From contig JAJCZC010000023.1 in NCBI GenBank assembly GCA_029262575.1, forward strand, positions 13,959 to 77,958: DNA of 64,000 nt. Direction: 5' to 3'. This DNA comes from Candidatus Babelota bacterium. GTDB lineage: Bacteria > Babelota > Babeliae > Babelales > Vermiphilaceae. Each line of letters opens with the position of its first letter. Within the stretch, counting starts at the first letter, position 1. Position numbers and translations under genes: made by a program. A model generated the notes under the pieces. That model did no database searches and was not told the origin of the DNA. It was given only the letters and a program-made list of their open reading frames with translations. Below, one piece after another: positions 13,637 through 14,899 of the stretch.

Positions 13637-14899
13637 TTAAACCGCTACCACATTCATTAATCGTTTTTCGAGCGCATTGCGCACATTGGCGTAAACTGCA
13701 GGATTACGCATAGCCAACATTTGCATTGCAGCAAGAATTGCATTGGTCGGTTCAAGCACCGTCATAACTGGCGTTAAACTTGGTGTACGCAATGATGACC
13801 ACACATCCGCCTCAAAACCTTTCCAGCCATTTGGAATGGTGATCACTGGAATATTGGTATTTGCCGAAATAGTAGGCCCTGCACCATTGCTGCGCCCAAC
13901 ATAAACCAATGCGACACTATCTGGCACTTCTTGCACCAATGCTTGCAACTCCATAAGCGCTCTCACCGGTTCTTTATGCAATGATGCGGTCACGACTTTT
14001 AACCCTACAAACTCTTTATACGGTTCAAACGCTTTTAAAAATGGCTCAACGTCATCACGTTCGGATGCACGCCACATAATGAGCTGTTGTTTTGGAATAG
14101 CAAATTGTGCGGTTAAATCACGCACTTTAGCATAACGTTTAGTCACTTCGTTTAAGTCGCCACCATCACGATAAAACTGTTTATCCAAATATTGTCCATT
14201 TTCCATCACACGCCATGAATCATTATCAATCACATCAGCCAACAAAAGATTGCCATCAGTATCAAAACCGAATTCAACTTTGAAATCGACCAATCTGCGC
14301 CCCATCGATTGCCATGCTTTTTCTAACATTAAAAAAGTTCGACGCACAATGTCTTCCATCTGGTCAAAACATTCTGGACGATCTTTGAGTGGGAAATCTT
14401 CGAGCTCAAGGCATGGTTTTGCGCCAACAAATTGTGCTTTTGGATGATACATCACCGCTTTATCATCCTTAAATTCGATAAATGGATCATCTTCGGGAAT
14501 TGTTTGATCTTTCCATTTTTTATCGGTTGTTTTGAGGAAAAATTCCACCACCAATTGTGGAAACAGTTGCCCTTTTTGCAAATGTGGATACCGTTTCAAG
14601 AATGAACCATGCCCTTCACGGCGTGCAATCACTTCGTATGGAATCATGTCACATTTTTTGGCCAAAAAATGGGTATCGTCAATCTGCTCAATAAAGGCTG
14701 TTGGAATGCCGCATGCTTTGAGTAGCCGAAACACATTGCATGTGGTGTCGGTTGCAATGGCAGCTTTACCCGTAACAACATCATGTTTTGCATCAGTCAC
14801 ATAAGTAATGTCATCTTTTGATTCTATTATTACCGTTTTTTGATCTTGTTCATTGGCACAGATCAATTTTGTTTTGCCTTCGCACAATACCTTTTGCAT
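13637..14899 (-). CDS. purC-purE: bifunctional SAICAR synthetase / AIR carboxylase (PAICS-like PurC-PurE fusion)
   Basis: 420 aa. N-terminal ~260 aa SAICAR synthetase (LCEGKTK, GKAAI, MIPYEVIARR, GSFLKR, LLLADVIDNDSWR). C-terminal ~150 aa PurE-like (VALVYVGRSNGAGPTISANT, DVWSSLRTPS). Confidence 0.9.
   Translation of the reverse strand: MQKVLCEGKTKLICANEQDQKTVIIESKDDITYVTDAKHDVVTGKAAIATDTTCNVFRLLKACGIPTAFIEQIDDTHFLAKKCDMIPYEVIARREGHGSFLKRYPHLQKGQLFPQLVVEFFLKTTDKKWKDQTIPEDDPFIEFKDDKAVMYHPKAQFVGAKPCLELEDFPLKDRPECFDQMEDIVRRTFLMLEKAWQSMGRRLVDFKVEFGFDTDGNLLLADVIDNDSWRVMENGQYLDKQFYRDGGDLNEVTKRYAKVRDLTAQFAIPKQQLIMWRASERDDVEPFLKAFEPYKEFVGLKVVTASLHKEPVRALMELQALVQEVPDSVALVYVGRSNGAGPTISANTNIPVITIPNGWKGFEADVWSSLRTPSLTPVMTVLEPTNAILAAMQMLAMRNPAVYANVRNALEKRLMNVVAV

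Follow-up and report, generated by a model that had tools for sequence, protein, structure and literature searches.

In reviews and textbooks, bacteria are assigned PurK and a class I PurE, and the CO2-using fused enzyme (PAICS) is presented as an animal trait. This contrast underlies the proposals of PurE and PurK as antibiotic targets (PMC10484210, PMC3261824). A fused PurCE has been called 'common in eukaryotes', and the class II PurE of archaea has been treated as eukaryote-derived (PMC3261824). In a literature search, no paper dedicated to bacterial PurC-PurE fusions was found, and only one incidental mention was encountered. Among stand-alone enzymes, the class II PurE of Treponema denticola reportedly has aminoimidazole ribonucleotide (AIR) carboxylase activity, shown by experiment. 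Here we describe a bacterial fusion gene, purCE, in a window (the whole stretch of DNA analysed, 64,000 nucleotides) from Candidatus Babelota bacterium, an intracellular-type member of the Dependentiae (assembly GCA_029262575.1, contig JAJCZC010000023.1, positions 13,959 to 77,958). The gene very probably specifies a working PAICS-type bacterial PurC-PurE fusion that is native to a small group of purine-synthesising Dependentiae and did not come from a eukaryotic host.

The purCE gene lies on the minus strand at 13637..14899, stop codon included, and is an uninterrupted open reading frame (ORF) of 420 codons. In Pfam searches, SAICAR_synt (PF01259, E 5.9e-43) covers residues 5-258 and AIRC (PF00731, E 4e-14) residues 289-410, both above the gathering cut-offs. 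With the residue alignments described below, these matches delimit a PurC, or SAICAR (succinylaminoimidazole carboxamide ribonucleotide) synthetase, half of about residues 1-265 (14105..14899, minus strand) and a PurE half of about residues 272-420 (13640..14086, minus strand). The top sequence matches in the PDB are the PAICS of Bombyx mori (4ja0, 1.5e-55) and human (2h31, 5.8e-50), with both halves covered; stand-alone PurCs rank below these two, followed by the T. denticola class II PurE. An AlphaFold2 model of the monomer, built from an alignment of 23 family members (pLDDT 87.8, pTM 0.89), has as its best fold match the human octameric PAICS 6yb8 (E 7e-32, TM 0.69/0.70, 429 columns), and a full-length match is also obtained with 4ja0. 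A comparison with an orthologue that is 86% identical gave dN/dS = 0.095; purCE is under strong purifying selection. The earlier note, made from the letters of this DNA, had described one protein of 420 residues with SAICAR synthetase at the N-terminus and PurE at the C-terminus, in the order and size of PAICS, and the ORF, Pfam and PDB results agree. The seven motifs it quoted are all present and each aligns to its human counterpart: EGKTK (7-11), GKAAI (44-48), MIPYE (85-89), GSFLKR (98-103) and LADVIDNDSWR (220-230) in the N-terminal half, and GRSNGAGP (335-342) and DVWSSLRTPS (365-374) in the C-terminal half. Its statement that the protein closely resembles the animal enzyme holds for architecture and motifs, but the closeness was overstated, since the protein has 35% identity to a mammalian PAICS and the alignment contains 13% gaps.

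The product is most probably a functional, PurK-independent AIR carboxylase / SAICAR synthetase, judging from its residues and genomic setting. In the proposed mechanism, the C-terminal class II PurE would join CO2 to AIR directly, without PurK and without ATP, to give carboxyaminoimidazole ribonucleotide (CAIR); His308 would serve as general base, and Lys309, Ser279 and Asp282 would hold the ribose phosphate. The N-terminal domain would then ligate aspartate to CAIR with ATP to give SAICAR. The chains may assemble into a PAICS-like octamer, with possible channelling. As the genome's sole PurC and PurE, the enzyme would be supplied from the end of a purT-purP-purP-guaA-purCE operon within a purine cluster.

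The assignment to class II was examined by aligning the PurE half with class II enzymes (human, Bombyx and T. denticola) and with the class I PurE of E. coli (from NC_000913.3). At every discriminating site examined, the window protein has the class II state. It has S306-L-H308-K309 where E. coli has S-A-H-R, G335-R-S-N-G-A-G-P342 where E. coli has G-G-A-A-H-L-P-G, and D365-V-W-S-S-L-R-T-P-S374 where E. coli has D-S-L-Y-S-I-V-Q-M-P-R; the E. coli class I loop is 4 residues longer, and those residues are absent from the window protein. The change from Arg to Lys after the catalytic His has been singled out as a difference between the classes (PMC10484210). The human AIR-carboxylase site, comprising S274, D277, S301, H303, K304 and G330-L335 (PMC9376930), maps to S279, D282, S306, H308, K309 and G335-A340 of the window protein. 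Against the class I equivalog TIGR01162 the protein scores 50.1 bits, below the cut-off of 149.6, so that by score, by motifs and by want of a PurK partner it falls outside class I. Among the 120 nearest homologues, S-x-H-K is present in 115, G-R-S-N in 108 and [W/Y/F]-S-S-L in 115, and S-x-H-R in one. The class II nature of the PurE domain, previously argued from the missing purK, is thus upheld by its active-site residues, and these signatures suggest that the PurE half uses CO2.

The genomic content is in keeping. In the genome assembly (1.67 Mb, 41 contigs, 95.6% complete), there is a single AIRC domain and a single SAICAR_synt domain, both in purCE, with no second PurE or PurC; E. coli PurE gives no tblastn match at E <= 1e-3. 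No purK was found in the window or in the genome: the best TIGR01161 match (169.9 bits, cut-off 318.4) is purT, which is also all that E. coli PurK matches in tblastn. The absence of purK noticed earlier in the window therefore extends, by profile and by tblastn, to the whole genome.

In the PurC half, the residues listed for the human SAICAR synthetase site (including G16-K19, T40-N43, E97, K191, E193, D207, D212-R215, K228 and R232; PMC9376930) are all conserved except in the A41-G42-N43 loop, which corresponds to Y33-V34-T35 and is considered below. The ATP loop G8-K9-T10-K11 aligns to human G16-K19, E89 to E97, R93-R94 to R101-R102, D205/K207/E209 to D189/K191/E193, D222 to D207, D227-S228-W229-R230 to D212-R215, K240 to K228 and R244 to R232; T32 is kept (human T40).

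The window protein is one of a large bacterial family. When 5.8 billion protein clusters were searched, 4415 homologues were returned, and among the best 120 identity to the window protein spans 51-86% (one at 86%, the others at about 51-62%). All of these 120 have both domains, all align over the full length except P0007 (538 aa, 68% of the query), and those that carry names are bacteria only (Dependentiae, Gracilibacteria, Parcubacteria/Patescibacteria and Verrucomicrobiota). Of 157 positions with a conservation of at least 90% across the family, the window protein keeps 147, and the ten deviations are all common to the 86% relative. A pattern search of one genome per GTDB species, with group names taken from record titles, found the PurC-PurE fusion in at least 590 bacterial species genomes, among them Dependentiae, several phyla of the candidate phyla radiation (CPR), Verrucomicrobiota, Xanthobacteraceae and other Alphaproteobacteria, Polyangiaceae, Tepidisphaerales and a Gammaproteobacterium. 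The fusion had been regarded as an animal or amoebozoan design, as opposed to the arrangement in typical bacteria, and this view does not survive its presence in so many bacterial species.

The same association with missing purK is seen across the family. A purK above cut-off was found in 0 of 17 PurCE-bearing genomes (about 10 phyla by record title), as against 11 of 14 control genomes, and most of the 17 have no AIRC domain other than that of the fusion. Because PurCE genomes are without purK and the fusion is mostly their only AIRC, it takes the place of PurK and class I PurE across many bacteria, and this gene content supports PurK-independent chemistry on comparative grounds. The small genomes among the 17 (Dependentiae and CPR) have no other PurC; the large free-living ones retain an extra, canonical stand-alone PurC. 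Such a PurC, scoring about 250-277 bits, stands beside PurCE in G267, G268, G276 and G277 (Xanthobacteraceae, Alphaproteobacteria) and in G270, G273 and G275, with no purK and mostly no other PurE, and in those large free-living bacteria the fusion's PurC half seems redundant.

The position of the window protein was determined in a maximum likelihood tree of 61 full-length fusions (LG+C20 with posterior mean site frequencies). Eukaryotes were sampled with vertebrate PAICS and then by an elephant-shark PAICS search of 1.84 billion 50%-identity representatives. The deepest split of the tree has support 100/99. On one side are the Metazoa (98/93; shark, mammal, Bombyx, the sponge Oscarella, the nematomorph Gordionus and others) together with six prokaryotic fusions, including Eremiobacterota (Candidatus Elarobacter) and Microgenomates/Woykebacteria. 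On the other side are 47 rows, with the window protein and every bacterium named by record title. Here the window protein pairs with its 86% relative inside a 12-row subclade (93/70) that holds all five Dependentiae-tied sequences, which come from at least three GTDB families; two of the sequences, L001 and L080, are Dependentiae by record title and identical to copies in genomes of the same order and the same family, respectively, as the window's genome. A CPR sequence (Giovannonibacteria) is sister to this subclade. Each half was also placed in a tree of its own, the PurC half together with stand-alone PAICS-type PurCs, reversed-order fusions and E. coli PurC, and the PurE half together with the T. 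denticola and E. coli enzymes; both trees gave the same placement and nearest neighbours as the whole protein.

Several observations weigh against the reading of purCE as a working and native enzyme. In the PurC half, the family loop T-A-G-D-G has become T-Y-V-T-D in the window lineage (Y33-V34-T35), and the equivalent human loop, T40-A41-G42-N43, lines the SAICAR/aspartate site (PMC9376930). An insertion of about 20 residues (about 124-160) is common to the whole bacterial clade, with W129 and D137-D138-P139 invariant and shared by the window protein. Lying between K123 and D137-D138-P139, it replaces the short K-x-D-x-x-x-D-P metal-binding stretch of the animal and E. coli enzymes; human D133/D137 fall within it, where the alignment is of low confidence. 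Since this family-specific insertion sits at the metal-binding stretch, metal ligation there may differ from that of the animal and E. coli enzymes. In the PurE half, the G-S-x-x-D loop of the family reads A278-S279-E-R-D282 by motif spacing, Gly278 having been replaced by Ala. The pathway also looks incomplete, as purH and purA were not found in the genome by tblastn, and the literature search gave no biochemical data for any member of the bacterial fusion family. Finally, purCE is present in only 6 of 261 Dependentiae species genomes and is missing from two genomes of the same genus; because of this distribution, vertical inheritance in the phylum is not proven.

The last point bears on the alternative that survives best, namely that the purine cluster, purCE included, was transferred into a Dependentiae ancestor or lineage from another bacterium such as a member of the CPR/Patescibacteria. 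A purD above cut-off is present in 7 of 261 Dependentiae species genomes, the two congeners that are without purCE are also without purD, and de novo purine synthesis, with about 7 of 261 species, is rare in the phylum. Such a transfer fits the CPR sequence that is sister to the Dependentiae subclade and the mixing of phyla elsewhere in the tree, where Akkermansiaceae group with Tepidisphaerales and Vogelbacteria fall inside a Verrucomicrobiota/Pseudomonadota clade, which shows frequent inter-phylum transfer; from both features together, purCE does move between bacteria. However, the five Dependentiae sequences, in spite of their spread over families, form one subclade, and the patchiness would be accounted for just as well by reductive loss in an intracellular lineage. 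Gene order is also kept. In the 86% relative, EamA-purQ-purSL are on one strand and purT-purP-purP-guaA-purCE on the other, in the order seen in the window; the 62% relative has purP-purP-guaA-purCE-purB-purM-purSL-purQ, so that purP-purP-guaA-purCE is preserved at 62% protein identity; and in two other Dependentiae purCE lies among purine genes. The composition of purCE is native-like. A foreign composition was considered and rejected: GC is 0.416 (0.387 +/- 0.023 over 609 long ORFs) and GC at third codon positions 0.359 (0.322 +/- 0.036 over the same ORFs), at the 90th and 87th percentiles, respectively, which is not anomalous. Comparison of the cluster flanks with the two congeners gave no empty-site inference, because on the upstream side the flank is of a multi-copy family, on the downstream side it is on another contig or absent, and the flanking proteins are only 44-65% identical, making synteny untraceable. 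With congeners that carry neither purCE nor purD and with synteny untraceable, retention with many losses and inter-bacterial transfer are both possible; we regard transfer into the Dependentiae as somewhat unlikely, though the only alternative of real weight, and continue to favour a gene native to the subset that has it. The one purK above cut-off among the 261 Dependentiae genomes is on a very short contig of G184 (C125:135-1190). The G184 assembly has 190 contigs, 4% contamination and no purD, and its purK is possibly a contaminant.

A second alternative concerns function, in that the PurE half could act as a mutase on N5-CAIR formed spontaneously in a CO2-rich niche, or serve mainly as a structural core for oligomerisation. 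There is a precedent in some archaea, whose PurE is class I-like, which lack PurK and which are believed to depend on non-enzymatic N5-CAIR (PMC3261824), and the carboxylase reading of the bacterial family enzymes is itself drawn from sequence. Set against this are the class II state of all discriminating positions examined, the retention of the catalytic His308 and of the substrate-binding Ser and Asp, and the strong purifying selection. The domain is also nearer in sequence and fold to the T. denticola class II PurE than to any class I enzyme: the isolated PurE domain matches PAICS at 1e-12 and T. denticola PurE at 1.4e-5, and the class I PurE of M. tuberculosis only at 0.06; when the folds of the PurE half alone were compared, the T. 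denticola enzyme again ranked above those of class I. A non-carboxylase PurE half is therefore improbable, and a class II carboxylase remains the preferred assignment.

Recent acquisition of an animal or amoebozoan PAICS from a eukaryotic host, although suggested by the domain order and size, by the animal PAICS that head the solved-structure matches and by the general association of Dependentiae with protists, is highly improbable, given 35% identity to mammalian PAICS against 55-62% to many bacterial fusions (and 86% to one), no eukaryotic name among the 120 nearest homologues, a placement many supported nodes deep in the bacterial clade for the whole protein and for both halves, a conserved operon synteny without compositional anomaly, and a drop of 205 in log-likelihood when the window pair is forced into a clade with Metazoa (approximately unbiased test, p = 1.06e-07). 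Capture from Metazoa is refuted. The earlier note, which had put forward acquisition from a eukaryotic host as a hypothesis, had itself said that both halves lying inside bacterial clades with a widespread fusion would overturn it, and this is the arrangement found. The version with an amoebal host is rejected only indirectly, because no amoebozoan PAICS was recovered by name among the 50%-identity representatives returned by the shark PAICS query; those named were sponge, nematomorph and amphibian sequences and one choanoflagellate PurC-like protein. For the window, the practical outcome is negative: there was no transfer from eukaryote to bacterium.

The opposite direction is conceivable for the family as a whole. 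Since Metazoa group with prokaryotic fusions, and the larger bacterial clade makes up the other side of the split, the PAICS design may have been a bacterial invention. We tentatively raise the broader proposal, which we hold to be possible at somewhat less than even chance, that animal PAICS arose by bacterium-to-eukaryote transfer and that the Dependentiae copy operates in a folate-independent, PurK-independent route (PurT + PurP + class II PurCE) kept by few intracellular lineages. When the PurC-half tree is rooted with E. coli PurC, the outgroup branch is very long and the base is unresolved, giving no direction for any ancient inter-domain transfer. Of the six prokaryotic fusions on the metazoan side, two are metagenomic proteins in compact pur operons; the ORFs flanking P0253 overlap its gene, and P0267 groups with the Woykebacteria sequence. 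Prokaryotic fusions of that side (L084 8001-9275 and L097 2951-4192; P0246, P0256, P0263, P0282 and P0253) share up to about 50% identity with shark PAICS. In P0270, P0277, P0285, P0293, P0303, P0329 and P0333 (about 416-454 aa), the PAICS-type PurC domain is C-terminal, which suggests that the order is reversed (PurE-PurC) or that the N-terminal partner is a different one. Stand-alone PurCs of the PAICS type, 270-290 aa long, were also numerous. The reversed-order and stand-alone PurCs interleave with the fusions in the PurC-half tree, suggesting repeated fusion and fission.

The purCE gene is the last of a co-oriented, tightly spaced minus-strand series, a probable operon whose upstream part (14928..21243) was delimited by ORFs, spacing and family assignments. 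In order, the series consists of purT (19993-21243; TIGR01142 583.5 bits, cut-off 502, and NF006766 602 bits), purP' (18964-19962), purP (17834-18967), a secreted ORF (17109-17837), guaA (15567-17093), a Cys-rich secreted ORF (14928-15545) and purCE, with purP', purP and guaA named by family assignment. Both secreted ORFs have a signal-peptide-like N-terminus and no Pfam match. They are missing from the 86% relative (L092), where purP overlaps guaA and guaA abuts purCE. A Shine-Dalgarno-like AGGAG (14905..14909, minus strand), read from the sequence, is located 5 nt upstream of the purCE ATG. A GC-rich hairpin with T-runs (13606..13630), terminator-like on both strands by consensus match only, sits between the convergent stops of purCE and a plus-strand gene (11656-13596). 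The wider cluster contains most of the remaining genes for purine synthesis; besides the series it carries purS-L, purQ, purD, a fusion of purB with purM and a divergent purF, together with an EamA transporter. The purB-purM fusion (33218-35659, minus strand, 813 aa) scores 380.8 bits against TIGR00928 and 426.4 bits against TIGR00878; in the 62% relative (L094), purB and purM lie next to each other as separate genes. The purF-like protein (35682-37631, minus strand, 649 aa) scores 121.9 bits, far under the purF equivalog cut-off of 350. With two purP of archaeal type and purT in the cluster, formylation of aminoimidazole carboxamide ribonucleotide is probably formate-dependent. The cyclohydrolase giving inosine monophosphate and the adenosine monophosphate branch are unaccounted for in the tblastn survey of the genome, in which only the C-terminal third of guaB was found (contig C37); the pathway may have a restricted output, or tblastn may have missed genes.

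The purCE gene is thus largely ordinary, belonging as it does to a large multi-phylum bacterial PurCE family. It is a further example of a PAICS-type, PurK-independent enzyme being common in bacteria, and it marks one of the few Dependentiae apparently able to make their own purines. A modest interest attaches to the rarity of purine synthesis in the phylum and to the prokaryotic fusions that branch beside animal PAICS.

Compared with known systems, the window protein is most like the other members of the bacterial PurC-PurE family, annotated as 'AIR carboxylase family protein' or 'phosphoribosylaminoimidazolesuccinocarboxamide synthase' and found in Dependentiae, Patescibacteria/CPR, Verrucomicrobiota, Xanthobacteraceae, Polyangiaceae and Planctomycetota. 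It belongs to them by phylogeny, with 55-62% full-length identity and a genome without purK in common, but differs in the substitutions it holds in common only with its 86% relative and, from the large free-living members, in being the sole PurC of its genome. With metazoan PAICS (human 2H31/6YB8, Bombyx mori 4JA0) it shares a single chain of ~420 aa with PurC N-terminal and PurE C-terminal, most of the catalytic and binding residues of both sites, the class II signatures and the two-domain fold (TM about 0.7). However, it is only 35% identical to the animal enzyme, lies across the deepest supported split of the family, and has the ~20-residue PurC insertion, the Y33-V34-T35 loop, a shorter linker and a bacterial operon. 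The T. denticola PurE (3RG8/3RGG), which outside PAICS is the closest match of the PurE half by sequence and by fold (TM about 0.8 on the target), has the same S-x-H-K, G-R-S-N and [W/Y]-S-S-L-R-x-P-S motifs, but at 159 aa it stands alone, carries no PurC and has about 26% identity. The E. coli-type class I PurE, an N5-CAIR mutase, has in common the PurE fold and the conserved catalytic His; unlike the window protein, it has S-A-H-R, A-G-G-A-A-H-L-P-G and S-I-V-Q-M-P, a loop longer by 4 residues, and a need for PurK.

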